From a plasmid, in the sequence record NZ_CP118109.1: 64,000 bases of DNA; one strand, written 5' to 3'. Positions 4,248 through 63,936 of the stretch are shown one piece after another. The notes beneath the pieces were generated by a model. That model saw nothing but the letters and a program-made list of their open reading frames with translations, searched no databases and was not told the origin of the DNA. Numbering within the stretch: position 1 is the stretch's first letter; each line of letters begins with the position of its first letter. The position numbers were made by a program, and so were the translations under genes.

Positions 4248-4412
4248 AAACCTTGTTTATACTAATAGAATTAGATCGGGATTGGACAGTAGGTCTTGAC
4301 TGGTACAAGCACAGTAAAGGTGTACGATTAGGCTATTTCGCCATACACATCGTTTTTGTAAAGCATTCTGAATTTGTAAATAGATTAGCCAAGCACTATG
4401 CAGAGGAGCGAT
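4248..4412 (+). CDS. small hypothetical protein (TTG start)
   Basis: 54-codon ORF filling the gap; RBS ctgggggagat 9 nt upstream. Confidence 0.25.
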
Positions 4413-4417
4413 AACAG

Positions 4418-4675
4418 ATGAGCCAAGAGGGGCAAGTGATTAAACATTTAGTTGAACAAATGAAGGCACTTAATGCAGATAATGCACACACGCAGCTTCA
4501 AAACATTGAACAGACTCAAGGACTGACTGTTGTTATATCTATTTATGACAATTTAAAGCCGGCACACGAAGTATTGGATGAATTATATGAATGGGCGGAA
4601 GAAAACAACGAAGAAGTAAAGGAACTCATTGAGCAACTGGAGCAAGATATGAGTTGGAACGCTGAGACGGATTGA
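4418..4675 (+). CDS. hypothetical acidic protein
   Basis: RBS gaggagcga; 85 aa. Confidence 0.5.
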   Translation: MSQEGQVIKHLVEQMKALNADNAHTQLQNIEQTQGLTVVISIYDNLKPAHEVLDELYEWAEENNEEVKELIEQLEQDMSWNAETD

Positions 4676-4711
4676 GGCCATCAGTCTCTTTCCCTGGGAG
4701 GGGAGAACACA

Positions 4712-4876
4712 TTGAAGAATTTTGACATATACGAGTATTTAGCTGACTTTGTTAGTGATGGGAAATCAAAAGACGGAGATGAAATTCTTATAAACATTGA
4801 TGGTCGGAAGATATGTGTAGTTACTCCTCAATTTAAGGAAGAAGAAATCAGTTTCAAGATTGTAAAACGGTATTAG
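4712..4876 (+). CDS. small hypothetical protein (TTG start)
   Basis: strong RBS gggaggggagaa; 54 codons; below track cutoff. Confidence 0.3.
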   Translation: MKNFDIYEYLADFVSDGKSKDGDEILINIDGRKICVVTPQFKEEEISFKIVKRY

Positions 4877-4999
4877 GGAGGGGAGAACAACAGATGATTA
4901 AAAATCAGCGAGTTGTAGTTGAGTACTTAACCAATACCGGACATGACTTTTTTAATAAAGAAACAAAGGAAAAACGAAAGTATGGTGGAAAGGTAGACT

Positions 5000-5332
5000 A
5001 TGAGTAAACAAGAGCACCTTATATCAGCAGATAAGCTGAAGGAATGGTTTTTAAATAATGACAAAGCTGAACCTTTTATGGAATCTGAGTATTCTGGTGA
5101 TGCATTCGTAGACCTTTGCGCAGCAATTGATTCAGGATTGCTCAATCCTGATCCAGTACCCACCATTAAGCCGGGAGATAAGGTGCGATACCACGGATGG
5201 CAATACAATCTATCTAATGTTGCAACAGTAGATCATTTGATAGAGAGAAATGGCACATATGCAACCATAATACATGACGAAGCACCTTATATTGTTCCAC
5301 TTGAACATTTGGAGGTAGTAAAGGATGAATGA
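5000..5332 (+). CDS. hypothetical protein
   Basis: ORF track; RBS ggtggaaaggtag. Confidence 0.5.
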   Translation: MSKQEHLISADKLKEWFLNNDKAEPFMESEYSGDAFVDLCAAIDSGLLNPDPVPTIKPGDKVRYHGWQYNLSNVATVDHLIERNGTYATIIHDEAPYIVPLEHLEVVKDE

Positions 5333-5552
5333 AGAAGTAGAAACAATCGGTGATTACCTTGAGCGAATGATTACAGAAGGTTACATTGACAAAGACTGTC
5401 GCCCGATAAAGTGTCACATCTGTGAAAGCACTGATATAGAAGGACGTAATTATATGTACGAAGATTTCGCGCTTATCATTGAATATGAAATGTTCTGCAA
5501 GCCTTGCAATGTATCAATTGGGCGATGGTCTTATGGAAACTGGGAGGCGTAA
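5325..5552 (+). CDS. hypothetical Cys-containing protein
   Basis: ORF track, overlapping start. Confidence 0.45.
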   Translation: MNEEVETIGDYLERMITEGYIDKDCRPIKCHICESTDIEGRNYMYEDFALIIEYEMFCKPCNVSIGRWSYGNWEA

Positions 5553-20400: not shown

Positions 20401-20437
20401 AAGAGCTGATCGTTTATTGTTCGGCTCTTTTTTATTT
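20401..20437 (+). terminator. rho-independent terminator
   Basis: aagagc-N17-gctctt then ttttattt. Confidence 0.55.
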
Positions 20438-20474
20438 CATATTGGAATGCATTACATATAAGGAGGTTTTGTAG

Positions 20475-20702
20475 TTGAGTGATAAGAGATACATCCTATT
20501 TACAAGAGAAGGTAGTAGTGAGGTTCGTGCAGACGATACCCAGAAGCGTTATTTCGATCCGCCAGGAAGAGATCATATTATTTTTGGATTTGATAATCAG
20601 AAAGCTATGGCTAGAAAGGCTAATGAACTCCTACGAGATGGTTGCACATTGCTTACCCGCGGAGGAAGAGAGCAGCTGAGGATTTTTAAATCCTATATAT
20701 AA
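20475..20702 (+). CDS. hypothetical protein (TTG start)
   Basis: RBS taaggaggt; half-site of the palindrome motif upstream (ggaatgcattacat). Confidence 0.45.
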   Translation: MSDKRYILFTREGSSEVRADDTQKRYFDPPGRDHIIFGFDNQKAMARKANELLRDGCTLLTRGGREQLRIFKSYI

Positions 20703-20907
20703 CCAATTCATTTGATATGCCTTCCTTATCATGATAAAATATCCCTAGTATTGGAGTGTATGCCTAGCGCTTCAAACTTGTCATCACAATACGCCATATT
20801 GTTTTTGACAATTGATGTTTATGGATGTCTCAGATCGGTTGAGTCAACAGTTTCGCTATAGGCTGTTCGACATACGAGCTGAGGATCATGATTTGACATC
20901 AGCATAT

Positions 20908-20936
20908 AACCCATCTTTTATGATGGGTTTTTGCTT
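20908..20936 (+). terminator. rho-independent terminator
   Basis: aacccatc-ttttat-gatgggtt then tttgctttg. Confidence 0.55.
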
Positions 20937-20956
20937 TGTAAGGAGGGAATATCAAA

Positions 20957-21268
20957 ATGGTTCCAAAATCACCTTTTATTTTGGAAATGTGTCAAGACAT
21001 AGCCCGACACATGCGGGCAAAAGGTGTTTGGCCAGATTGCTCAGCTGAAGATATACACAAATCTGCTGATGTTTATGAGCAGATCCCTTCGTGGTGGTAC
21101 GATGCCCTTGCCTACTTTAATGAAAGGGATTATTATTACACTTTAGATGATGTCCAGAGCCCACAGGAAGGCCAATACGTTTCTGTACGAAAGCCAGGAT
21201 ACATAGATGGATATCAGTATAGAAATGGCAAATGGGTAGAAACTGGAGGCTTTAGCACTTATTCATAA
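20957..21268 (+). CDS. hypothetical protein
   Basis: RBS gtaaggaggg. Confidence 0.5.
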   Translation: MVPKSPFILEMCQDIARHMRAKGVWPDCSAEDIHKSADVYEQIPSWWYDALAYFNERDYYYTLDDVQSPQEGQYVSVRKPGYIDGYQYRNGKWVETGGFSTYS

Positions 21269-21280
21269 TAAGAGAGGAAT

Positions 21281-21619
21281 TTGCAAATGTATTTCTATAG
21301 TGAATCTCATGAAACTAATTACAAAGAAATGCTCAAGAGGTATCCTACAGCATTAAAGGATGCGGAATATAAATTAGGCTGCTATATCGTAGCTCATCCT
21401 GAAATTTATCTTGCCGCATCTGAGCAAGATTGGCCAGATATTTTCGATGATTGGACTGAGAAGTCATTCTCAAGAGGAGGACGACTGCTCATTGATCTCG
21501 GCATGCACCTCTTCGGGGGCGGACATACTGAGCTTAATCTAACAGATGCCATTAACACATGGGATGATAAGAATTACAAAGTGTTTTTACAAGCAGTTGA
21601 TATTCGAAGAAATGGTTAA
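21281..21619 (+). CDS. hypothetical protein
   Basis: RBS agagaggaa. Confidence 0.5.
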   Translation: MQMYFYSESHETNYKEMLKRYPTALKDAEYKLGCYIVAHPEIYLAASEQDWPDIFDDWTEKSFSRGGRLLIDLGMHLFGGGHTELNLTDAINTWDDKNYKVFLQAVDIRRNG

Positions 21620-21648
21620 GTCGCCTAATATGGCGGCTTTTCTTTTTC
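21618..21648 (+). terminator. putative terminator
   Basis: tcgcc-taatat-ggcgg then cttttctttttcc. Confidence 0.4.
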
Positions 21649-21740
21649 CCATATTTTACGTGTTACTATGAAAATATTAGTAACATTAGTTCAAAATACC
21701 TGCTATAATGAAAAGCGGAAAATTAAGAGGAGGAAGAAAG

Positions 21741-22517
21741 ATGGAAGACTTTAGTGCTATTTTATTGTTTGTTTCACTCATTGCTATGGTCGCATTTTTA
21801 GTTTTATCAGTGGTTTCTAAGATTAAGAAAGATGGCAAAGCTAAGCGGAAGCTAATGTATGCGGGTGGATCTTTCGTCGTAATGATCGCATCTTTTATTA
21901 TGTTTGGTAGCGTGACTTCTGGCACGACTACAACCGCTGATCCTGCTCCTGCTGTTGAGCAACCAAAGGCTGAAACAGTAAAGCTTTCACCTGAAGAAGA
22001 AGCGGCCATAAAGGAAGAAGCAGAGGCAGCTGCGAAGGCTAAAGCAGAGGAAGAGGCTAAAGCGAAAGCTGAAGCTGAGGAAAAGGCAAAGGCTGAAGCA
22101 GAAGCTAAAGCAAAGGAAGAAGCTGAAGCAAAGGCTAAAGCAGAAGCGGAAGCTAAGGCTGCAGCTGAGGCGGCGGCTCAAGCAGAGGCTGATAAGAAAG
22201 CAAATGCTCAAACAATTGAATATCCGCATCTTTCAAAGAATCCTGACCGTTACGCAGGGGAGTATGTTACATACACCGGCGAAATTGTTCAAATATTAGA
22301 GAGCGGCGAGTTTACTAATATCAGACTTGCTGTAACTCAGGATGAATGGGGATATAACTACAACGACCTCATCTTCATTGAATACGAGGGATTAACTGAC
22401 TTTGTTGATGGTGATGTTGTAACGGTCTATGGTGAGATCTACGGGGCTTATTCGTACACATCACAGGCAGGTTGGGAGATCACCCTGCCTGGTCTAGTAG
22501 CTGACACTGTAGAATAA
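21741..22517 (+). CDS. membrane-anchored protein with long E/A/K-repeat helix and C-terminal globular domain
   Basis: RBS aagaggaggaagaaag; N-terminal TM; EAKAKAEAEAKAKEEAEAKAKAEAEAKAAAEAAAQAEA. Confidence 0.55.
   Translation: MEDFSAILLFVSLIAMVAFLVLSVVSKIKKDGKAKRKLMYAGGSFVVMIASFIMFGSVTSGTTTTADPAPAVEQPKAETVKLSPEEEAAIKEEAEAAAKAKAEEEAKAKAEAEEKAKAEAEAKAKEEAEAKAKAEAEAKAAAEAAAQAEADKKANAQTIEYPHLSKNPDRYAGEYVTYTGEIVQILESGEFTNIRLAVTQDEWGYNYNDLIFIEYEGLTDFVDGDVVTVYGEIYGAYSYTSQAGWEITLPGLVADTVE
22015..22200 (+). repeat. tandem 9-12 bp GCTGAAGCA/GAAGCTAAA-type repeats encoding the EAKA tract
   Basis: direct read. Confidence 0.7.
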
Positions 22518-22542
22518 AATGATAAAGAAACTCCCTCCAAGG

Positions 22543-22570
22543 AAGCCGTCCGATCGGGCGGCTTTTTTAT
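22543..22570 (+). terminator. rho-independent terminator
   Basis: gccgtcc-gatc-gggcggc then ttttttat. Confidence 0.65.
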
Positions 22571-22571
22571 A

Positions 22572-22599
22572 TTTATATTGCACTAAAATATGGTATAAT
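22572..22599 (+). promoter_or_regulatory. promoter TTTATA-16-TGgTATAAT (extended -10)
   Basis: direct read upstream of 22692 gene. Confidence 0.5.
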
Positions 22600-22691
22600 T
22601 AAAAATGCATCAAAATACTGACAGGTATTATCATGGTGAGGGCCGCCTTTGTGCGGCTTTTCCCATGTATATCATCATATGGGGGATTCCT

Positions 22692-23738
22692 ATGTCAAAT
22701 AAGGTATATAATGACTCATTGTATAACGAGGATGTGAAATTAAAGTTCCTAGAGTTAATGAAAAAGAATGGTTGTTCTGAAAATACATTAGTTACATATA
22801 AGCGAGTTTTTCTACGCGCATCTGGATTAGAAAAAAGATTTAAGACGGATCTGTATGATTTTACATTCGAATATATAGAAAAACTCTTAATCAAGATGAA
22901 TCATACAACATTAAACTCCGCAATAAGCAGCATTAGCATCATAAGAAGTTACATTGATTGGGCGATACAGAACAAGTACAGAAAGGTGCCTTTAAGCCCA
23001 CTGGACGTATTCACTACGAAGGAATTGGCCCAGCGATACAAGAACAAACGAGTAAGAGTATATTTTACACATGCTGAAGTGCAAAAGTTTGCAGATAGCG
23101 CTGTGAATGCGCAGGATAAGGCTCTCATTTGGGCAATGTTTCATGGTATATGTGGAAATGGGATGGCAGAACTAAGGAATCTTACGTTGTATGATATTGA
23201 TCAGCATAACTATAAATTGACTCTTAAGGACGATGATTCAGAGAGAGTTATTGAACTCATCTCAGATGAACAAAAAAAATTGATCGACCACCTTCTTAAA
23301 GCCCATGAGCAAACTCATTATCTAAAGGGAAACGGAAAGTCTGTTGCTAAAAACCCTATCGGTTTCTTAGCAAAAAATAACCATGTATTTAGGCCTATGA
23401 TTCGTGGAGACAGTTCTACTGCTTCTTATCATGTTTTAAGAAATAGACTTGTAGATATATCAAAAATCAACGAAGAGCCGCAACTAACTTCCCCTATTTC
23501 GTTAAGATATAGTGGGATGCTTTATATGGCTTATTGTGAATATCAAAAGCATGGGGCGTTGAGTCTTGAGTCCATAAAGAGAATTTCAGATTTCTATGCT
23601 ATCAGTAAAGTAACTGATTCCAAATATGACAACTTCTTTATTCGAAGAGAATTTTTAACCGAAGAAACGATCATAAAGGAATATCTCTCTGGAGACGAAG
23701 GAGAAGAAGACTATGGAGTTGATGCAAAGATATTTTGA
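22692..23738 (+). CDS. tyrosine-recombinase/integrase-like protein (tentative)
   Basis: N-terminal SAM-like segment TLNSAISSISIIRSYIDWAI; C-terminal SYHVLRNRLV (HxLR-like) and downstream Tyr; motifs weak. Confidence 0.4.
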   Translation: MSNKVYNDSLYNEDVKLKFLELMKKNGCSENTLVTYKRVFLRASGLEKRFKTDLYDFTFEYIEKLLIKMNHTTLNSAISSISIIRSYIDWAIQNKYRKVPLSPLDVFTTKELAQRYKNKRVRVYFTHAEVQKFADSAVNAQDKALIWAMFHGICGNGMAELRNLTLYDIDQHNYKLTLKDDDSERVIELISDEQKKLIDHLLKAHEQTHYLKGNGKSVAKNPIGFLAKNNHVFRPMIRGDSSTASYHVLRNRLVDISKINEEPQLTSPISLRYSGMLYMAYCEYQKHGALSLESIKRISDFYAISKVTDSKYDNFFIRREFLTEETIIKEYLSGDEGEEDYGVDAKIF

Positions 23739-24006
23739 TAATCTTTATCCCAAGGTTCAGGTTATATCAAATCGATTCAAGTGTACCCTAGATTATCACA
23801 CGATAAAAAGATGGCTAAATGCTAATGTTCCAAGACAGTTTACTCATAAGTATGGGGGCTATACTTATACCACAACAGGTCTTGGCAAAGAGATTGTTGC
23901 TAAGGTTGTATGTGAAGGAAAGATTAACGGCGATGCAGTTTACTGTGCTATCGTTTTTCATAATTCGATTCGCATATATCTAAAGCAGGGGTTAAATTAT
24001 TTGTGA
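23713..24006 (+). CDS. hypothetical protein starting MELMQRY
   Basis: overlapping start; MELMxxY N-terminus. Confidence 0.45.
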   Translation: MELMQRYFDNLYPKVQVISNRFKCTLDYHTIKRWLNANVPRQFTHKYGGYTYTTTGLGKEIVAKVVCEGKINGDAVYCAIVFHNSIRIYLKQGLNYL

Positions 24007-24011
24007 TTGGA

Positions 24012-24203
24012 TTATTCTCTTAATTCAACACGGCCATCATTATATATGTTCATTCGCAGTAGCCGGCCATCACGAACTCTGTAATTGTACACGCAGTATT
24101 CATAGTTGAGACCGGATCGACCAAAATATATAAGCTCACCATATTTTTCATAATACTTTACAGCTTCGTCCAGTGAGTCAAATTGTGGCAACGGCTTATT
24201 CAT
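24012..24203 (-). CDS. hypothetical protein (convergent)
   Basis: RBS gaggtgg before second ATG. Confidence 0.4.
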   Translation of the reverse strand: MNKPLPQFDSLDEAVKYYEKYGELIYFGRSGLNYEYCVYNYRVRDGRLLRMNIYNDGRVELRE

Positions 24204-24278
24204 ACAAACCACCTCGATACAAGTATAACATATGTAATATAATGCAATTCTTGAATTACAGCAGGAGGAAGATAATAA

Positions 24279-24569
24279 ATGAGCATGCAGAAAAAGTTAG
24301 AGGCAGCAAGACTAGAAGGATATAAGGCAGGGTTTGAAGCTGGTCTTAAAGACAGTGCTTCGCAGAAGGAAATTCAGACATCTTTTCTGAATGGTATCAA
24401 AGTGGGGGCAGATGCTGCAAATGAAGCATGGTCCTCAGCCGTTCAAAATGCCCCAGGCGTAGGTCCAAAAACCATGAAAAAGATATACGATCAAGCCGAG
24501 AAGGAGCATAAAGAACGAAAAGTGGAGCGTGAAATGCTTGCAAAGTCTTCCGTAGCCAAAGGTGCATAG
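24279..24569 (+). CDS. hypothetical protein
   Basis: RBS caggaggaag. Confidence 0.5.
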   Translation: MSMQKKLEAARLEGYKAGFEAGLKDSASQKEIQTSFLNGIKVGADAANEAWSSAVQNAPGVGPKTMKKIYDQAEKEHKERKVEREMLAKSSVAKGA

Positions 24570-24581
24570 GTTGCTTTGCAA

Positions 24582-24660
24582 TGACATAAAGTTGCCTACT
24601 CGGCTAGAGAATTGACATAAAGTTACCCACCAGACTGGAGAGTGACATAAAGTTACCTAC
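24582..24660 (+). repeat. three direct iteron-like repeats TGACATAAAGTTRCCYAC at about 30-31 bp spacing
   Basis: copies at 24582, 24613, 24643. Confidence 0.8.
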
Positions 24661-24675
24661 CAGAAGCTGCCTAGG

Positions 24676-24716
24676 CCGCCGGTAAACTAGCTCAAGTTTA
24701 CTCGGCGGTTTTTTTG
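24676..24716 (+). terminator. rho-independent terminator
   Basis: ccgccggtaaac-N8-gtttactcggcgg then ttttttt. Confidence 0.65.
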
Positions 24717-24755
24717 GTAATACTATCTTCATAATAGTTCTTGGAGGAAACACAC

Positions 24756-24845
24756 TTGAAGGAAGATGCTAAGATCGTATTCAGTATTATTGCATTAGGT
24801 TTTTTCATCATTGCATTAGTCATACTAGTATTATACTGGGCCTAA
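24756..24845 (+). CDS. 29-aa hydrophobic membrane peptide (TTG start)
   Basis: RBS ttggaggaaa; sequence KEDAKIVFSIIALGFFIIALVILVLYWA. Confidence 0.25.
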   Translation: MKEDAKIVFSIIALGFFIIALVILVLYWA

Positions 24846-24927
24846 GAGGGCCGATTTCTCATCCTCAGACATTTAGTCAAAATTCAGATTTTGTGCACAT
24901 GTCTAACATAAAATACTTTATGTAAAC

Positions 24928-24949
24928 CAAAAAGCCGCCTATTGGCGGT
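24928..24949 (-). terminator. secondary terminator downstream of hag
   Basis: A-run then gccgcc-tatt-ggcggt on + strand. Confidence 0.4.
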
Positions 24950-25003
24950 TTCCTGGACCCAATGAACCAATGATTATTATCACCAATAAAATGTTTTTCA
25001 TAC

Positions 25004-25044
25004 ATAAAAGCCGCCCTATACAGGACGGCCTTGTTTTTGCTTTT
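25004..25044. terminator. bidirectional terminator at hag 3' end
   Basis: aaaa-gccgccc-tataca-ggacggc-cttgtttttgctttt. Confidence 0.6.
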
Positions 25045-25048
25045 AATA

Positions 25049-26092
25049 TTAACGAAGCAATTGAAGAACTGCTTGTGGTTGTTGGTTTGCTTGAGCCAAC
25101 ATTGCTTGAGCTGCTTGGGAAAGAATCGAGTTCTTAGTTTGCTCAACCATTTCTTTCGCCATGTCAACGTCACGAATACGGGATTCAGATGCTGTCAGGT
25201 TCTCTGCTGTTGTACCCAGGTTATTTACTGTGTGCTCCAAACGGTTTTGTACGGAACCCAATTTAGAACGCTCAGCAGATACGCTCTCGATCGCTGCGTT
25301 AATTGTAGTGATTGCTGTATCAGCGTCTTCTTGGTTAGAAATGTTGATACCAGCGTTTACTTTTGCTTCATCAGCATATGCTTCGTCAACTTTGACAACC
25401 ATTTTGTCGCCATCGTAGTAACCAGCTACAACAACATCATCTTCGGTTGCCTTTCTAGTTGTACCATTACCACTGCCATCGTCAATGTCGTCTCCGACAT
25501 TAACTGCTTCTTTAAAAGTAAGTGTAGTTGTTCCGGCAGTCAAAGTTGCAGTAGTGCCATCGTTATCAGATGTGTACTCTGTGCTTACTTTCAGCGCTTC
25601 AGCGCCCATGTCACTAATTGAAAGACTAATGCTTTGACCTGCATTTGCTCCGATTTGGAATGTAACATTTTCAGCAGAACCATTGATCAGCTTTTTCGTA
25701 TTGAACTCAGTGTCTGTAGAGATACGAGTCAATTCTTCAGCTAATTGGTTTACTTCTTTTTGAAGCTCTGCGCGGTCGGAATCCGTGTTTGTGTCAGATG
25801 CTGATTGAACTGCCAGCTCACGCATACGTTGCAGGATAGAATGAGATTCATTCAATGCACCTTCAGCTGTCTGGATCAGTGAGATACCATCTTGAGCGTT
25901 ACGAGAAGCTTGCTCAAGACCGCGGATTTGTCCACGCATTTTTTCGGAGATTGCAAGACCCGCTGCGTCATCACCAGCACGGTTGATGCGAAGACCGGAA
26001 GACAATTTCTCCATGTTTTTTCCTTGTGCAGAGTTAGCTGCGCCCAGGCTGCGTTGAGTGTTAATCGCCGCAATGTTGTGATTGATAATCAT
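25049..26092 (-). CDS. hag: flagellin
   Basis: N-terminal [17 protein letters not shown]...[30 protein letters not shown] and C-terminal flagellin helices; RBS GGAGG. Confidence 0.9.
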
Positions 26093-26109
26093 TTTTAACC
26101 TACCTCCAT

Positions 26110-26131
26110 GTAGTTACGTCAAGGAGAGTCC
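26110..26131 (-). promoter_or_regulatory. hag leader hairpin with GGA in loop (CsrA-binding-site-like) next to the GGAGG Shine-Dalgarno
   Basis: minus-strand caaggaga-aaggac-tctccttg; architecture matches B. subtilis hag leader BS1/BS2. Confidence 0.45.
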
Positions 26132-26150
26132 TTTCTCCTTGCGTTAAGAT

Positions 26151-26348
26151 TTAGAGCGGCAGTCCATTTTGTCTGCAGAGCTCTTTTTGTTCGTCTGACA
26201 AGATCTCTTCCCTGAGTATCTTAACGTCATTCGGAGCAGTTATTTCTAACTTTGGATTGCCGTAATCATCGACCTTCACTTTAATATGTATGGAATTGCC
26301 GATAATGATCGACTCACCCGCTCTTCTGTTGACTGTTAATTTTCCCAT
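26151..26348 (-). CDS. csrA: carbon storage regulator CsrA
   Basis: MGKLTVNRRAGESIIIGNSIHIKVKVDDYGNPKLEITAPNDVKILREEI; track ORF over-extended upstream. Confidence 0.75.
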   Translation of the reverse strand: MGKLTVNRRAGESIIIGNSIHIKVKVDDYGNPKLEITAPNDVKILREEILSDEQKELCRQNGLPL

Positions 26349-26382
26349 GCCGACTACCAACTTCCCTATTGTGATAGTTATT

Positions 26383-26409
26383 TTATCGGCGGGATCCGGA
26401 AATAGTTTA
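26383..26409 (-). promoter_or_regulatory. sigma-D (sigma-28) type promoter TAAA-N15-GCCGATAA driving csrA-hag
   Basis: minus-strand tggtaTAAActatttccggatcccGCCGATAAaa, close to B. subtilis sigma-D consensus TAAA-N15-GCCGATAT. Confidence 0.6.
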
Positions 26410-26445
26410 TACCATTTTAAAAAAATTTTATTGGAGCTGATAAAT

Positions 26446-26790
26446 ATGAAATATAACCCTACTCTACTCAACGTTTTTAATCTTAATAAATTTGATCCTC
26501 GTGAGTTAACGTATAGCGAAAAAATGCTGGTCGAGGAATATCTTGGCGAAATCTTAGAGGAACAATATTCCGGAGACATCCAAGAAATTATCCATTATCA
26601 AGATAAACGCATTACATTTAGCGAGGATTCTGAAGGCTTCAAACTGCCCCTAGCAAACGATCTACCACTTGAATATAACCTATGGAATATAAATAGTTTA
26701 TTCGCCTATGGAGAGGCTGATATGGAGCTTGTGGCGGTCTTAGAGAATCCCGAAAATACAATGAATCAGGTGATGGTTAGTATGTATTAA
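26446..26790 (+). CDS. hypothetical protein
   Basis: ATG with ggag 8 nt upstream; track ORF 26290 is over-extended. Confidence 0.5.
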   Translation: MKYNPTLLNVFNLNKFDPRELTYSEKMLVEEYLGEILEEQYSGDIQEIIHYQDKRITFSEDSEGFKLPLANDLPLEYNLWNINSLFAYGEADMELVAVLENPENTMNQVMVSMY

Positions 26791-26841
26791 TTATCTATTT
26801 ATTGGTATAATTTAATTAGAACATCGAGGTGATTTTGCTAA

Positions 26842-27102
26842 ATGAAAATAATATCTATCTATCTGGCGATAGGTTCCATTATCGCTTTTCTATTTTTAAT
26901 GTCTCTATACGGCTTTAGTTGGTACACCCAAAGAAATGAGCCTGATGATTTTGAAGAGGAGCTGGAAAGAGAGCAGCTGCAAGGATCGTGGGATAAAGCA
27001 TCAAGAGAATTTGGCGGAGACATGCGTACTGTATTCTTGATGTTCGTTACGATCTGTCTGGCTTGGCCAGGTTTTATTATTTATGCTTTCAAGAAAGACT
27101 GA
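26842..27102 (+). CDS. small membrane protein (two TM segments)
   Basis: RBS atcgaggtga. Confidence 0.5.
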   Translation: MKIISIYLAIGSIIAFLFLMSLYGFSWYTQRNEPDDFEEELEREQLQGSWDKASREFGGDMRTVFLMFVTICLAWPGFIIYAFKKD

Positions 27103-27130
27103 ACATCGTATTGCAGGAGTGTAAAGAAAA

Positions 27131-27367
27131 TTGAAACAGATTGAAGAATGCTTTGACCGGTATTTTGATAATATGTCACCGCTCAAAAAGAAATGGCAAA
27201 TCGTCGATGCGCCAGGAAATAGTCTATGGCTTTTTCATTACCACCATCTTATTCTTGTCTTTAATAAGACCACTAGAGAGATTATTCATGAGTGGGCGGA
27301 AACATCTGCTGATAAGCGCGGTTTGAGAGCTGCAAAAGAATATCTTACAAGACGTTATGATCTGTAG
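27131..27367 (+). CDS. hypothetical protein (TTG start)
   Basis: ORF track. Confidence 0.35.
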   Translation: MKQIEECFDRYFDNMSPLKKKWQIVDAPGNSLWLFHYHHLILVFNKTTREIIHEWAETSADKRGLRAAKEYLTRRYDL

Positions 27368-27481
27368 TATAGTATAGCAACGAGGAACGCTTGTATGCTT
27401 AGGCGCTGTCTCCGATTTTGATGTTTCATTATTGGAATCATGGGGTAATATATTCTTTTACATTCATCACGAGGTGAGGAC

Positions 27482-28009
27482 ATGATTGGCCTGCTTAGAC
27501 AGCGACCTGCGTTAATTGTTGGATTTATTGTAAATAGCGATACCCACATTGAAGCTGTACGTAATTTATTTCCTGTCGAGTACCATAAAAGGATGATCTT
27601 TCTTTCGCTAAGCGCGCTTGATCTAACCGATAATATGAAGCGTTATGTAACCATGCTAGGCAATCTTACTCATCATTTAATTATTTGCCTAGATCCTGGC
27701 CAAATCGCTGATGCTCTTACTCCTGTATTTAAGGAGTGGGTGCCTTCTGCCGAAGAAGTTGTTCTCAACGTTCCTTTGCTCGAATGCGAAAAAGAATATT
27801 TGGGTCTTCAAATTTTTGAAGCATACCGTTTTTCTGTTTGTGAGAAGAAACGTGCTAAAGAATTAATACCCTGCATAAATTGTACCAAGATGACCTATAT
27901 TATCGACTCTAGCTGGAATGTGCCTTTATGTAGTGATGCATGCTTTGAAGAATGGGAATCGAATCATGCGAAGAAGCTGCGCTCAAAACGCCATAAGCAA
28001 AAATTATAA
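27482..28009 (+). CDS. hypothetical protein with C-terminal Cys cluster
   Basis: RBS cacgaggtgagg. Confidence 0.55.
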   Translation: MIGLLRQRPALIVGFIVNSDTHIEAVRNLFPVEYHKRMIFLSLSALDLTDNMKRYVTMLGNLTHHLIICLDPGQIADALTPVFKEWVPSAEEVVLNVPLLECEKEYLGLQIFEAYRFSVCEKKRAKELIPCINCTKMTYIIDSSWNVPLCSDACFEEWESNHAKKLRSKRHKQKL

Positions 28010-28159
28010 TATCTAAGCGGATGATTGGATGTTTTCAGTTGTCCGCTTCTTTGTTTTTCGATTTTTATCTACCTTCTTCCCTCTCATTTTTACCGCCTCC
28101 GTTTGATAGTTTCTACTCTTTTTATACCCTATTTGCTAGGACGAACACAAGTCTTTTGT

Positions 28160-28470
28160 CGATTCACTTATCCACAGCTCTGCCTATTATTTATATATGG
28201 TGGAGAAAAGATTTTATTAAAGAAAGTACTTCTTTGCGTTAAATTTTTTAACCCCCCTCTTTAAAATTTTTAACGTAATAGCCTTTCGTTAAAATTTTTA
28301 ACGTAATGTTTTTGCCTAAAATCGTTACGTTAAAAATTTTAACATAAGGGTTATCCACAGATCGATCTACTACGTTAAAATTTTTAACGTAATGAGCTTC
28401 AACTCTCAAATTCGTTACGTTAAAAATTTTAACGTAAGAGATAACCACAAAATCTGTGGATAACTTTTCA
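28160..28470. other. oriC-like replication origin: three perfect DnaA boxes plus AT-rich palindromic repeat array
   Basis: TTATCCACA at 28168 and 28351, TGTGGATAA at 28455, degenerate ATAACCACA at 28441; sits next to initiator-like gene. Confidence 0.6.
28245..28436. repeat. five to six copies of 23-bp AT-rich palindrome TTACGTTAAAAATTTTAACGTAA
   Basis: copies near 28261, 28288, 28325, 28371, 28414; each is self-complementary. Confidence 0.8.
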
Positions 28471-28475
28471 ATAAA

Positions 28476-28510
28476 AAAAGCAGAAGGATGTCTCCCTCTG
28501 CTCTCTTTTT
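28476..28510. terminator. bidirectional terminator
   Basis: aaaaaaa-gcagaagg-atgtct-ccctctgc-tctcttttt. Confidence 0.5.
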
Positions 28511-29501
28511 ACAAAAATTTTTCTGCTGTAGTAACACAAATAATTGCATCATTATTGTTGGTCAAATCTCTAAAGATGTTAAGAATTTGCTTCGAATGAT
28601 AATTATCAATCCATTCTGCAGCGAATGGCGCAGGCGCAAGCACCACCAGTTTGTTATCTTCGAAGAACCCAAAAGTCTCTTTAAACCATGTGCCAAATGT
28701 AACGGCGCTTATAGATCGTTTCAAGATATCTTCGATCTCACTCCATAAGTGAATGTCTTGAGGTGTTCGATTCAGGAACAGCTCTTCACGTTTTTTGTTG
28801 ATCCTTACTTCCAACGGAGCGGTGACTTCAATTGATCCAGGTGTTCTAGCTCTCCCCTTCTCATGCAGCTTCTTAATCTCGTCTTCATGATCATTATTCT
28901 CTGGGAGCATAACCTCGTTAGACTCAAAAAGTTTTTCCATAAAGCGATTATGTTGAAGGAGTAGCCACTCAGGCAGCTGCTTCAGCTCTGCCTCACTTAA
29001 GAAAGGAACGGTCTGTCTTACTTTCACTCGAGTGCTATCATTCATTCCCTTTTTCTTTTTACTCTCTGCCCAGAACCGCATAACAAAACCGTAGTCTTCA
29101 AGTTTACTTAGGTATTTAATCAGTGTAACACGACTGATCCCCATCATTTCTGCCATGTGTTCTTGTGACATATGAGGGATTGATTCGTTGAATGAAAGGC
29201 TCAGATAATTTATGTAGGTCATGGTAGCTTCTGGCCCAAGAAAGTATTGCCAAAATTTAATCAGATAATTGTGAACGGTGGTTTTGTTGCCTGGTGTGTA
29301 AGGCAGTGAAAGACCCAAGTTCTCGAGCGAATAACTAGTGACATCTTTTTCAGTGTAATAGATCTTCCTCGTCTCCTCGACCATTTCCTCAATGCTCTCC
29401 CCGTTAACTTTTCTTTTTCGCGGCACCTTATTTCCCGTCTTTTCATAGCGGAAATAATGTATGTCATTCGTGCTGTCGCCCATCTTCAAAGACCTCCTCA
29501 A
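28509..29501 (-). CDS. replication-initiator/organizer-like protein with central HTH
   Basis: MAEMMGISRVTLIKYLSKLEDYGFV helix-turn-helix; adjacent to DnaA-box origin. Confidence 0.5.
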   Translation of the reverse strand: MRRSLKMGDSTNDIHYFRYEKTGNKVPRKRKVNGESIEEMVEETRKIYYTEKDVTSYSLENLGLSLPYTPGNKTTVHNYLIKFWQYFLGPEATMTYINYLSLSFNESIPHMSQEHMAEMMGISRVTLIKYLSKLEDYGFVMRFWAESKKKKGMNDSTRVKVRQTVPFLSEAELKQLPEWLLLQHNRFMEKLFESNEVMLPENNDHEDEIKKLHEKGRARTPGSIEVTAPLEVRINKKREELFLNRTPQDIHLWSEIEDILKRSISAVTFGTWFKETFGFFEDNKLVVLAPAPFAAEWIDNYHSKQILNIFRDLTNNNDAIICVTTAEKFL

Positions 29502-39482: not shown

Positions 39483-39731
39483 TTAATTATCTCCGCTTAC
39501 TGCCTCTTCATCTTCGGTTGTGAGATCTGAATACATTTCTCGGTTGCATAAGACAATTTGATTAAAGAACTTACTGGGTACAATTAGATTTCCTGCAACA
39601 ACATAGTTATCTCGTTCAGTGATTTCTTTCAGTCTTAGTTCCAATGGAAAATGATTTAAGTTGTTCGAACAATCCAAGGTGGCAACTCCAGCAATCATAG
39701 TGTTCTCGTTAAAGTTCATCATCGTAGACAT
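39483..39731 (-). CDS. hypothetical protein
   Basis: ORF track. Confidence 0.4.
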   Translation of the reverse strand: MSTMMNFNENTMIAGVATLDCSNNLNHFPLELRLKEITERDNYVVAGNLIVPSKFFNQIVLCNREMYSDLTTEDEEAVSGDN

Positions 39732-40498
39732 TTTATTTCTCCCTTTACACGTTTTTCGCGGAAGCTATCAGCGATTCGTTTTCGAATGCGATAAACAGAT
39801 CGATGATGGAGCCCGTTAATTCGAGCAATCTCTCTATCTGTCATGCCTTCATCGTAAGCCTTAAGAAGAATAAATCTTTCGCTATAACTCAGTTCTTTGA
39901 ACAAATCGCTACCTACTATGCCGTTCAACCACAGAATATTGTCCAGTTCAGTATACTCATCAACCTCCATATTTAGAGGCTCATAATAATACTTGTTTTC
40001 TATGATGCTGTCTATGGCTCGATCGTCATTTATGTAGCGGTCATCTTTGTAAGAGTACTGTTCTTCTTCCATACTCTCGAACATCTTATTATCCACAAAC
40101 CGCTTTACTCGGTATCTAAACACACTGTATACATATCGGCTAAAGCCGAATCCCATTTCTTTATAGGAGTGCGCACATTCTAACAATACGATTAGCAGCT
40201 CATGCTCAATCTCCGCTATATCATAGACGGAGAAAGTGTCTCGAATGTTCTTGATGACATCATAAACCTTCTCGATCGTTTCGCTTTTGCATCCTCCAGC
40301 TTTACAAAGATCATTGATGATTTCAGCTTCCCGAATGAAGCAGGATAAAAATCGCTTAGAATCATAGCTTTTAAAATCCATTTCTCCGTAGACGAGAAGC
40401 CTGCTGTATCTTCGTATCATCTTGTGATATCTTCTCATCAGAGGATTGGCATCGCCTTCTTCAAGATAACTATGAAGCGGATCGTGTTGCTTCTTCAT
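39719..40498 (-). CDS. sigma-70-family sigma-factor-like protein (region 4 HTH)
   Basis: MTDREIARINGLHHRSVYRIRKRI; RBS gaggaagg. Confidence 0.5.
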   Translation of the reverse strand: MKKQHDPLHSYLEEGDANPLMRRYHKMIRRYSRLLVYGEMDFKSYDSKRFLSCFIREAEIINDLCKAGGCKSETIEKVYDVIKNIRDTFSVYDIAEIEHELLIVLLECAHSYKEMGFGFSRYVYSVFRYRVKRFVDNKMFESMEEEQYSYKDDRYINDDRAIDSIIENKYYYEPLNMEVDEYTELDNILWLNGIVGSDLFKELSYSERFILLKAYDEGMTDREIARINGLHHRSVYRIRKRIADSFREKRVKGEIKCLR

Positions 40499-62697: not shown

Positions 62698-63936
62698 TCA
62701 TCGAGAATAATTAAGCCTTACCGCATGCAGGCATGGATTCACGCCGTTGTACATCAGCAGCTTTGTACGAACCCATATCCGCTCCGAAAACTGACCTGAC
62801 CATTCAGTATTCTTGAGGGGAGTAAGGAAGCCATCTGCTTCCTCTCTCAGTAATTCGTACTCAAAAACTCGTCCTTCCATAAGCTGATCCAAGTTGCGAT
62901 CAATACCAAATGCATCACGATTGAGAAAGACGTGTTCTACAGATTCAATGTTATAGATGCCTTCCATATCGAATGGTGTTAATATTGTGCCGCCGCCTGG
63001 TTCAAACATCGTCAAGTAAACGCCGATCTCTTGCGCTCCGAGAACGAATACCTTCTTACCGCCAATATCAAGGGGATTTTTTTGAACCAGCGTAATGCGA
63101 ATCTTCTGAACGGGAACGCCAGGGAAAAACCATTTCTTGCGAGGTGTATATTCGTTGCTGTTTACAGCGGCCATATCTGGTTGAATAAATCCCTGAATGG
63201 TATTCCAAGCGCTATTATAATGAATCTCCACATTCTTGACCTGAACGCCTCTTTCCGGATGTGGATGGATTTGCACCGTGTTGATGTTGAGATTGTTTAC
63301 TAGATGGCTAGGAAGTTCAATCTCAAGGATGACATCTTCTTGATCCGGACATTCAGCAATATTATATGTTACTGTTCTGTGCCAGTAAGACTCATTATCT
63401 CCGTTGAAGGCATTAAGCAGGTTATTGTCGATGACTTCACCCTTGGTATTTGTGCGACCTACTTGAACCTTCAGCTCCGTAGGAACCACCACAGTACCGG
63501 TCTTTTCATTGACCGTGTGTGTCTTTGGTATCTGATGAATCAGAGGAACAGTCGCATAGCGATAATTCAGGTCTACATCACAACGTAGGCTCGTCTCTCC
63601 GTTCTCTTGGGAGATGTTTGGGTAAACTGTCGTCATGTCTTGTACGAAGCCGGTCTTAAAGAAGATCGGATCGTAAGGCCCTGCTGATTCAATTCGATTC
63701 ATCTGTGCTTCTAACTCTACGGTCTTACGCTCAAGCATCATCGCATAGTTGTGTAGGGCTGTATTCGCTGCAAGGATGATCTGATGGGCTTCCGAAAGAT
63801 TCTGGATATTCAGATTGCTTTGACGATACAGCTCTACAAGCTCTAGGTATTTATTATCTTCGTTGTTATTGTAATCCGAGGAAGAAGTAGCTCCCCTAAA
63901 CTGGGCGCCTCCTGGTTTACTTGTAGGCATTCTCAT
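62698..63936 (-). CDS. protein with F5/8 type C-like domain
   Basis: NAFNGDNESYWH motif. Confidence 0.5.
   Translation of the reverse strand: MRMPTSKPGGAQFRGATSSSDYNNNEDNKYLELVELYRQSNLNIQNLSEAHQIILAANTALHNYAMMLERKTVELEAQMNRIESAGPYDPIFFKTGFVQDMTTVYPNISQENGETSLRCDVDLNYRYATVPLIHQIPKTHTVNEKTGTVVVPTELKVQVGRTNTKGEVIDNNLLNAFNGDNESYWHRTVTYNIAECPDQEDVILEIELPSHLVNNLNINTVQIHPHPERGVQVKNVEIHYNSAWNTIQGFIQPDMAAVNSNEYTPRKKWFFPGVPVQKIRITLVQKNPLDIGGKKVFVLGAQEIGVYLTMFEPGGGTILTPFDMEGIYNIESVEHVFLNRDAFGIDRNLDQLMEGRVFEYELLREEADGFLTPLKNTEWSGQFSERIWVRTKLLMYNGVNPCLHAVRLNYSR

Follow-up and report, generated by a model that had tools for sequence, protein, structure and literature searches.

Why would a phage-like element carry a flagellin gene directly behind a csrA gene of its own, and could the CsrA protein encoded there be held in check by the FliW of the host? 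These questions are raised by a csrA-flagellin cassette (i.e. csrA* and hag*, encoding CsrA* and Hag*) in sequence record NZ_CP118109.1, from which a stretch of 64,000 nucleotides (the window) was analysed. The Hag* and CsrA* proteins match WDI05030.1 and WDI05031.1 at 100% identity, and both records are deposited as '(plasmid) [Paenibacillus urinalis]' on a replicon of 214,846 bp. An original prediction had described a sigma-D promoter, csrA and a flagellin gene with a CsrA-binding leader, all located in a phage-like element and lacking fliW upstream, and had proposed that an unopposed CsrA may be delivered together with a flagellin. This interpretation is supported by the analyses reported here, and the csrA*-hag* module probably lets the phage alter the flagella of its host; the functional consequences for motility, antigenicity and the flagellar receptor are those that we infer.

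The csrA*-hag* transcription unit and its leader

All of the predicted elements were present, with the correction that the cassette lies on the minus strand. A sigma-D (FliA/sigma-28)-type promoter was located at 26383-26409 (i.e. a -35 TAAA at 26406-26409, a 15-nt spacer and a -10 GCCGATAA at 26383-26390), within the 97-nt gap that separates the start of csrA* from a divergent open reading frame (ORF) of 114 amino acids (26446-26790, plus strand). The sigma-D consensus known from B. subtilis is TAAA-N15-GCCGATAT, and sigma-D dependence is predicted for the cassette promoter, which fits this consensus at 11/12 positions; the promoter of the P. urinalis chromosomal hag gene (TAAA-N15-GTCGATAT) also agrees with it. 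No site in the 64 kb other than the cassette promoter matched TAAA-N15-GCCGATAW exactly, and three matches against an expectation of 0.89 were obtained in the window when one mismatch was allowed. In a relative from Paenibacillus sp. TCA20 (L002) with 78% identity, the -35 and -10 elements were unchanged and the spacer alone differed. The csrA* gene (26151-26348; 65 amino acids; WP_274338653.1) is separated by 58 nt from hag* (25049-26092; a flagellin of 347 amino acids; WP_274338652.1), with this spacer holding a hairpin followed by CAUGGAGGUA, which contains the Shine-Dalgarno sequence. Two intrinsic terminators on the same strand follow hag*. The first (25004-25030; GGCCGUCC-loop-GGGCGGC then UUUUAU) was recognised by eye and was not called by a consensus scan, and the second (24925-24948; CCGCC-AAUA-GGCGG then CUUUUUGGUU) was returned by a terminator scan. 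Computation showed csrA*-hag* to be a bounded transcription unit under a sigma-D-type promoter.

The leader of hag* contains two GGA sites in the arrangement used for flagellin repression in Bacillus. A BS1-like hairpin at 26120-26141 (minus strand) has an 8-bp stem (CAAGGAGA/UCUCCUUG) and the loop AAGGAC, whose GGA is at 26129-26131, and a BS2-like GGA site is formed by the GGAGG Shine-Dalgarno sequence at 26103-26107 (minus strand), 10 nt before the ATG and within CAYGGAGGUA. The 71-nt leader folds with a dG of -18.3 kcal/mol (z = -3.8), a value that was not attained by any of 200 shuffles, and the L002 hairpin exhibits two compensatory base-pair changes with the loop sequence AAGGA kept. 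Across the cassettes described below, a GGA-in-loop hairpin was found 15-75 nt upstream of hag* in 13/15 cases as compared to a mean of 3.1/15 and a maximum of 8 in dinucleotide shuffles, and the Shine-Dalgarno region contained GGA in all 15, mostly inside CAYGGAGGUA. The conserved two-site CsrA-type leader of hag* was thereby shown by computation. The leader of the host chromosomal hag gene has the same design as that of the phage, with a GGA hairpin loop and a GGA Shine-Dalgarno sequence (i.e. CCACAUGGACGUGG plus GGGAGG). Judging from these sequences, CsrA* would bind to the leaders of both hag* and host hag and repress their translation.

Additional hairpins were observed in the leaders of csrA* itself. 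A small hairpin, CAUC-AAGGAG-GAUG, contains the csrA* Shine-Dalgarno sequence in cassettes L005, L070, L078, L085 and L086, and GUCAGGAUGAC-like hairpins are present directly 3' of the promoter in L003, L065, L068 and L069; the motif is degenerate in the window copy. These hairpins suggest that CsrA* autoregulates its own translation, which is compatible both with the reading preferred below and with its main rival, in which the cassette governs the dose of its own flagellin. In L004 (6945-6975), the GGA hairpin itself encodes the conserved tail of CsrA* (TGCAGGGAGAACGGACTCTCCCTA, i.e. CRENGLSL), and in the window (26117-26175) and in TCA20 the hairpin is a copy distinct from the tail (CRQNGLPL) and the two occur in succession, which looks like a short tandem duplication uncoupling protein and RNA constraints. 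The idea that the CRxNGL tail is a mere by-product of an overlapping hairpin was rejected: it holds for L004, but in the window and L002 the motif persists with the hairpin lying beyond the stop codon.

As the simplest account of what drives the cassette promoter, a sigma factor encoded by the phage was also rejected. The sigma-factor-like ORF at 39719-40498 (minus strand; phrog_351) has a weak match of the extracytoplasmic-function type and is not FliA-like. The same family, phrog_351, is present 3 kb from the L065 cassette and probably in the near-identical L068 (a 320-amino-acid ORF, unscanned).

Loss of FliW determinants in CsrA* and conservation of Hag*

The protein encoded by csrA* was assigned to the CsrA family (PF02599) with an E-value of 1.1e-12 and 48.1 bits against a gathering score of 27, and was below the NCBIfam equivalog cut-offs (i.e. 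41.8 and 40.0 bits for NF002469 and TIGR00202 against 73 and 70.1). Only 36% identity was observed to the host CsrA, and a single close homolog (97%) was present among 5.8 billion proteins; an E-value of <=1e-3 was reached with only 226 of 1.84 billion representatives. Matches in the PDB were E. coli CsrA (1Y00) and RsmE (2JPP). Comparison with the TCA20 copy of csrA* (L002) gave a ratio of nonsynonymous to synonymous substitution rates (dN/dS) of ~0.025, indicating strong purifying selection. The RNA-binding signatures are kept as LTVNRR (LxxxRR) and APNDVKILREE (APxxVxIxREE), and the equivalent of Arg44 was invariant in 11/11 phage CsrA*. Mutagenesis of E. coli CsrA has established the importance of the L-x-L-x-R-R/K and APxxVxIxRxE/Arg44 residues.

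Control by FliW depends on other residues. In B. subtilis CsrA, Asn55 is needed for FliW binding, which is abolished by N55D, and this residue is invariant in the sampled organisms encoding both CsrA and FliW (10.1101/2020.07.02.184341). Asn55 (B. subtilis numbering) contacts Gln124 of FliW, and in Bacillales Asp41 forms a salt bridge with Lys123 of FliW, with the charge reversal D41K in B. subtilis CsrA abolishing inhibition by FliW (10.1101/2020.07.02.184341). An alignment of CsrA proteins contained Asn55 in 12/12 members with an adjacent fliW, in 0/11 without a nearby fliW and in 0/11 of the phage flagellin-linked CsrA*. The window CsrA* has Cys58 at the Asn55 position and Lys43 at the Asp41 position; the latter is K, R, Q or S and never acidic in the phage set, several members of which stop 8-11 residues past Arg44 and are thus tailless. 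This computation showed that the FliW determinants have been lost from CsrA*.

The absence of fliW upstream of the cassette, as originally claimed, was confirmed in the 64-kb window both by tblastn with the host FliW as query and by a profile hidden Markov model (HMM) of 11 diverse FliWs, which returned nothing at E<=10 whilst an independent control scored 6e-38. Similarly, fliW was not found in the 9.5 kb beyond the right window edge (contig L091), and the profile HMM detected no FliW at any of 15 phage flagellin loci. The host FliW retains the Lys-Gln pair (GKQIVL) that contacts CsrA. The notion of an unopposed CsrA, which had rested on the missing linked gene, is strengthened by the loss of both Asn55 and Asp41 from CsrA* and probably holds even with host FliW available in trans.

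Hag* is a full-length flagellin, with Pfam matches to Flagellin_N (6.4e-47; 159.5 bits) and Flagellin_C (1.2e-29; 102.9 bits), and passes the NCBIfam model NF009446 'flagellin Hag' (369.3 bits against a cut-off of 352). These matches, together with that of CsrA*, confirm that csrA precedes a full flagellin gene. The best non-self match was the P. urinalis chromosomal Hag at 74% identity, such that the earlier label of a host-like cassette is apt for the flagellin and not for csrA. Comparison with host Hag gave 84.8% amino acid identity for the N-terminal D0/D1 region (dN 0.12; dS ~2.2, saturated) and 90.6% for the C-terminal D1/D0 region (dN 0.056; dS 0.76), as against 44% for the middle surface-exposed domain (dN 0.57; dS 1.69). 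The dN/dS figures indicate strong purifying selection on the D0/D1 regions of Hag*, and conservation of these regions combined with divergence of the middle marks Hag* as an old, selected paralog. The N-terminal 72 residues are identical to host Hag at 58/72 positions, and this stretch of flagellin is sufficient for FliW binding (PMC6070490). Identity is 56/60 in the C-terminal 60 residues, which constitute the FliS-binding D0-C region. By these comparisons, Hag* should fit the export and assembly machinery of the host and present a different surface, and would be expected to be exported and incorporated into the filament.

Recurrence in phages and the carrier element

In total, 16 csrA*-flagellin cassettes were found. 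Two flagellin scans of IMG/VR yielded 17 contigs, of which 15 were assessable, and a CsrA-like ORF was immediately upstream of the flagellin gene in 11 of these 15. A sigma-D-like promoter was present upstream of csrA* in 12/16 cassettes, the spacers between csrA* and hag* range from -11 to +69 nt, and the flanks contain endolysin, terminase and portal genes and the sigma-factor PHROG of the window. Recurrence of the cassette in phages was thus shown by computation. The closest relative is the TCA20 contig (BBIW01000029; 9.9 kb), which is syntenic with window positions 20428-28279 at ~78% DNA identity. Its csrA* is at the same place and encodes a 97% identical protein, and the csrA-promoter-leader stretch is 93% identical. 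The flagellin of this contig comprises 258 amino acids, lacks the middle domain and is 62-69% identical in D0/D1; a fliS gene follows directly (L002 3022-3387; Pfam 7.4e-36). The 97% identity of csrA* alongside such different flagellins indicates that the regulator is conserved and that the flagellin allele has been exchanged between related elements. For the nearest further relatives of CsrA* (58% and 43% identical), both on metagenomic contigs, the gene directly precedes and overlaps a flagellin gene. Bacillus phage EZ-2018a (CP027117; L003) has a CsrA-like ORF 21 nt upstream of a flagellin gene, next to a rap gene.

Several loci depart from or border on this pattern. No CsrA-like ORF was present upstream of the flagellin in L084 (IMGVR_UViG_3300010167_000010, 329 kb), L066, L088 and L089, which represent a different way for phages to carry flagellin, and unverified gut 'Bacteriophage sp.' contigs with flagellin had no csrA. 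The Rap-family gene of EZ-2018a (4402-5547; RapH_N and TPR domains) is divergent from and adjoins the csrA-like/flagellin pair in this unannotated 118-kb B. pumilus phage, so that host-signalling genes and a flagellin module are clustered. In a metagenome-assembled genome of Moorellaceae (L024 5998-7156), a csrA without Asn55, with Lys at position 41 and with a 15-residue tail is followed by a flagellin gene, and no fliW was detected nearby; this locus may belong to a prophage, or may be an additional flagellin locus of the same kind within a genome. A scan of GTDB genomes with the CsrA* alignment returned ordinary CsrAs only (fliW-linked or proteobacterial/planctomycete), which were used as controls, and IMG/VR matches to CsrA* at ~40% identity were set aside as ordinary phage CsrAs without flagellin. 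Among deposited records, CsrA* had no match in plasmids and only weak matches to E. coli phage CsrAs in phages. The window itself has no fliS.

The carrier is a jumbo phage-plasmid of 214,846 bp and not a chromosome. The window, in a record labelled as a plasmid, combines phage hallmark genes with plasmid-type replication and is classed as a phage-plasmid on its gene content. Replication functions comprise a DnaE-type polymerase, a class I ribonucleotide reductase, a DnaB helicase, two primases and a clamp, and a Cas4-like exonuclease, an endolysin, the sigma-like protein, a protease and a virion structural protein are also encoded. At a distance of 1.3 kb from the cassette, an MrpR-like protein with a tyrosine-recombinase fold is encoded at 22605-23738 (plus strand; Pfam MrpR_N_CB 2.2e-23, MrpR_C_cat 3.4e-14). 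Prophage SPbeta has MrpR as its master repressor (PMC10516654), and homologs of the MrpR-like protein were found in large Bacillus siphophages. A replication-initiator-like gene (28509-29501, minus strand; DnaA_N and helix-turn-helix; phrog_26369 'replication initiation protein') has iterons directly upstream (28258-28449; repeat family D2, five 22-nt palindromic units of ACGTTAAAAWTTTTAACGTAAK set 28-45 nt apart). The cumulative GC-skew maximum is at ~26-28 kb, at the iterons, where gene orientation also flips; this is probably an iteron-type plasmid origin of the phage-plasmid, 2 kb from the cassette. The original claim of a mobile element was tested against a chromosomal or flagellar-operon context and withstood this test, as the canonical locus (flgM-flgN-flgK-flgL-DUF6470-fliW-csrA-hag-flaG-fliD-fliS-fliT) sits on the host chromosome instead.

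Other features of the element were recorded. Logan contig L091 (1-9600), identical to the right window edge, encodes a holin and three giant, tail-like VWA/PKD/discoidin proteins. For the virion structural protein (62698-63936), the sole phage relatives were Moorella phage MTATph1 and 0305phi8-36-like jumbo Bacillus phages (21-29%); an MrpR-bearing, plasmid-borne member of that lineage seems unrepresented in the phage collection. Megablast of positions 24000-27500 gave no match in the phage collection, and in the plasmid collection only a 392-bp flagellin stretch of a Brevibacillus megaplasmid. No relatives of the 114-amino-acid ORF or the replication initiator were found in IMG/VR, and only the TCA20 copy was found in the protein collection. 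Three direct repeats of TGACATAAAGTTRCCYAC (24582-24664), 30-31 nt apart, lie between an ORF at 24279-24569 and the hag* terminators and may serve as an MrpR-type operator or as a partition site. The stretch beside them (24676-24753), which is not itself part of the repeats, is 82% identical in the TCA20 relative.

A proposed mechanism and its alternatives

The preferred reading is that the cassette is a self-contained flagellin module of a temperate jumbo phage-plasmid that acts independently of FliW and alters flagellin homeostasis or filament composition. A probability of about one half is given to this reading, each step of which we infer. In motile-state (i.e. sigma-D ON) plasmid-bearing cells, host RNA polymerase with sigma-D would make a bicistronic csrA*-hag* mRNA. 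Host FliS would chaperone Hag*, which would then leave the cell through the flagellar type III secretion apparatus of the host and polymerise into the filament there. Hag* should be able to enter this path because its D0/D1 helices are host-compatible, and the filament would thereby gain a different surface domain. CsrA* would bind to the GGA hairpin and the GGA-containing Shine-Dalgarno sequence before hag* and repress translation, and would by the same rule bind and repress the two-site leader of the chromosomal hag mRNA. Since the FliW-contact Asn and the Asp41 salt-bridge residue have been lost and no fliW is carried, this repression would not be relieved by the Hag-FliW-CsrA partner switch of the host. 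In B. subtilis, Hag, FliW and CsrA are present at 1:1:1 and motility is impaired by 'even undetectable increases of CsrA' (PMC6529632), such that an extra FliW-blind CsrA should matter. The net effect would be an alteration of flagellin homeostasis and filament composition that favours, or at least includes, the phage allele.

A bias towards hag* could arise by coupling in cis. Speculatively, ribosomes terminating on csrA* would open the BS1 hairpin on the phage mRNA only; the csrA* stop codon precedes the extended hairpin by 7 nt here, and elsewhere among the cassettes it overlaps the hairpin or the hag* start. Such opening would be impossible on the monocistronic host hag mRNA. A wider version of this scheme, in which phages of Bacillales and related Bacillota share a widespread and hitherto undescribed two-gene device of a FliW-blind CsrA and an alternative flagellin under a host sigma-D promoter, with the Hag-FliW-CsrA checkpoint being hijacked, host hag being silenced, phage flagellin escaping by coupling and filaments being rebuilt from the phage allele, is put forward tentatively and with rather more doubt than belief.

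A number of observations weigh against the preferred reading. The hag* leader is of the same two-site type as that of host hag and is apparently equally repressible; because the two leaders are alike, there is no sequence sign that CsrA* spares its own flagellin. The ribosome-binding site of csrA* in the window (GGGAAG, 13 nt upstream) is weak, so CsrA* may be scarce. As 4/15 phage flagellin loci are without csrA, this gene is not obligatory for phage flagellins, and coupling in cis is inapplicable to L072 because hag* has its own promoter there, 224 nt after csrA*. Of the 215-kb replicon, ~73 kb were covered by the search for fliW. Finally, the CsrA* proteins of the window subclade have a conserved C(R/E)xNG(L/I) tail with an Asn (Asn61 in the window protein) positioned 4-6 residues past the Asn55 position, and this Asn might substitute in the FliW contact.

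In the main rival reading, the alternative flagellin is the sole payload and CsrA* works essentially in cis, as an incoherent feed-forward or negative autoregulatory loop that holds Hag* at a low level independent of copy number and prevents a toxic accumulation of cytoplasmic flagellin, with host hag being barely affected. The shared promoter of csrA* and hag*, the CsrA sites of every hag*, the many csrA* leaders that bury their own Shine-Dalgarno sequence in a GGA hairpin (i.e. L005, L070, L078, L085 and L086) and the harm done to B. subtilis cell architecture by Hag hyperaccumulation (PMC6529632) are all consistent with such a loop. We nevertheless consider it rather unlikely, as a free RNA-binding protein has no obvious way to ignore a host hag leader of like design and the host system responds very strongly to additional CsrA. 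The conserved tail bears on another possibility, that the cassette is a portable csrA-hag half of the partner switch which adds a second allele, with CsrA* still being antagonised by host FliW in trans (e.g. via CRxNGL). The Asn-Gly of this tail, 4-6 residues past the Asn55 position, is kept at the protein level, host FliW has the CsrA-contacting Lys-Gln pair and a Hag* N-terminus with 58/72 identities to host Hag probably binds FliW. Against this, Asn55 tracked fliW linkage without exception among the sampled proteins (12/12 versus 0/22) and is absent here, position 41 is occupied by the Lys that abolishes antagonism as D41K in B. subtilis, several phage CsrA* are without any tail and the best PDB matches are the FliW-independent CsrA/RsmE of enterobacteria and pseudomonads. 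Antagonism by host FliW is quite unlikely on this balance.

It is very unlikely that CsrA* is itself the payload and shuts down motility by suppressing all flagellin in lysogens, for example by removing the receptor of flagellotropic phages, with the linked flagellin being a by-product or decoy. A small excess of CsrA does abolish B. subtilis motility (PMC6529632) and the plasmid-borne RsmQ turns Pseudomonas from motile to sessile (PMC9928087). The flagellin of the cassettes is, however, always full-length, under purifying selection and tailored to the host; the TCA20 relative even adds fliS, and differing flagellin alleles beside a 97% identical csrA* mark the flagellin as a selected, functional product. 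The similarity of Hag* to the host's own Hag (74%), its closest match, could also be explained by passive capture of a chromosomal flagellar fragment without function, or by the window being ordinary chromosome. This explanation is hardly credible and is already contradicted by the plasmid-labelled record and the many phage replication, lysis and structural genes of the window, by a saturated dS to host hag that excludes recent capture, by the 36% identity of csrA* to host csrA and by the same architecture in at least 16 elements.

The alternative flagellin of Salmonella fljBA is co-transcribed with FljA, a repressor that blocks the other flagellin via its mRNA leader and clearly spares its own operon. 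In that chromosomal system, as compared to the phage cassette, the flagellin gene comes first, FljA is unrelated to CsrA and control is by DNA inversion. The chromosomal Hag-FliW-CsrA switch of B. subtilis (Mukherjee 2011/2016; Oshiro 2019, PMC6529632) shares with the cassette a sigma-D promoter, a CsrA-family repressor and the pairing of a BS1 hairpin with a BS2 Shine-Dalgarno sequence. The cassette differs in being carried by a phage, in lacking fliW, in encoding a CsrA* without Asn55 and Asp41 and in having csrA* directly upstream of hag* on one transcript, whereas in B. subtilis csrA is coupled to fliW and hag has its own promoter. In Enterobacter, prophage FRphi remodels flagella by means of fliCP and the RNA-guided repressor TldR, with changes in motility, TLR5 recognition and gut colonisation (PMC13418256). 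The tldR-fliCP system (PMC13418256; PMC10705468) likewise combines an alternative flagellin on a mobile element with a repressor of flagellin expression, and a phage-encoded flagellin is present here; in contrast, the cassette has no TldR/TnpB-like gene or guide RNA, would act purely post-transcriptionally and is found in Bacillales hosts. No ORF of the size or kind of TldR was present in 24000-27500, where the neighbours are ORFs of 66-175 amino acids without Pfam matches and the MrpR-like gene. By analogy, the cassette would correspond, at the post-transcriptional level, to the flagellin-remodelling prophages that use TldR. The csrA-tldR-fliC loci of Oscillibacter and Flavonifractor, in the former of which the locus-encoded CsrA binds a hairpin in the 5' untranslated region of the rival fliC (motif CAAGGAUG; PMC13418256), are chromosomal, unlike the phage-borne cassette. 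Element-borne translational regulators of the CsrA family that can also act on host targets, motility among them, are known as RsmQ of pQBR103 (PMC9928087), phage and plasmid csrA alleles (PMC7366521) and CsrT on Legionella integrative and conjugative elements; these differ in being proteobacterial, controlled by small RNA sponges and unlinked to a flagellin gene. Phages of Bacillus, Paenibacillus and Brevibacillus do not feature in a 2020 survey of phage and plasmid csrA, which likewise reports no linkage to flagellin (PMC7366521), and a full-text literature search, which was not exhaustive, turned up no account of csrA paired with a flagellin gene in phages of Bacillota. Phage-driven flagellin remodelling and CsrA on mobile elements were already known; a cassette family with a diagnostic loss of FliW control is added to them here.

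The cassette offers an explanation for the tiny ORF upstream of most viral-contig flagellins, which is often missed or left unnamed by annotation pipelines, and provides a natural series of FliW-insensitive CsrAs that is useful for the study of allosteric control of CsrA. The plasmid-bearing P. urinalis strain, together with the deposited B. pumilus phage EZ-2018a, makes up a simple testable system. Flagellin is the subunit of the motility organelle, serves flagellotropic phages as a receptor and is a major signal in immunity and plant defence. Its replacement by a phage has been shown only recently, in Enterobacter, where it is driven by an RNA-guided repressor (PMC13418256). In Gram-positive spore-formers, phages may arrive at a comparable outcome by re-using and re-engineering a translational checkpoint of the host via a CsrA released from FliW control; if true, this device would be an RNA-binding-protein counterpart of RNA-guided (TldR) remodelling that was reached independently.

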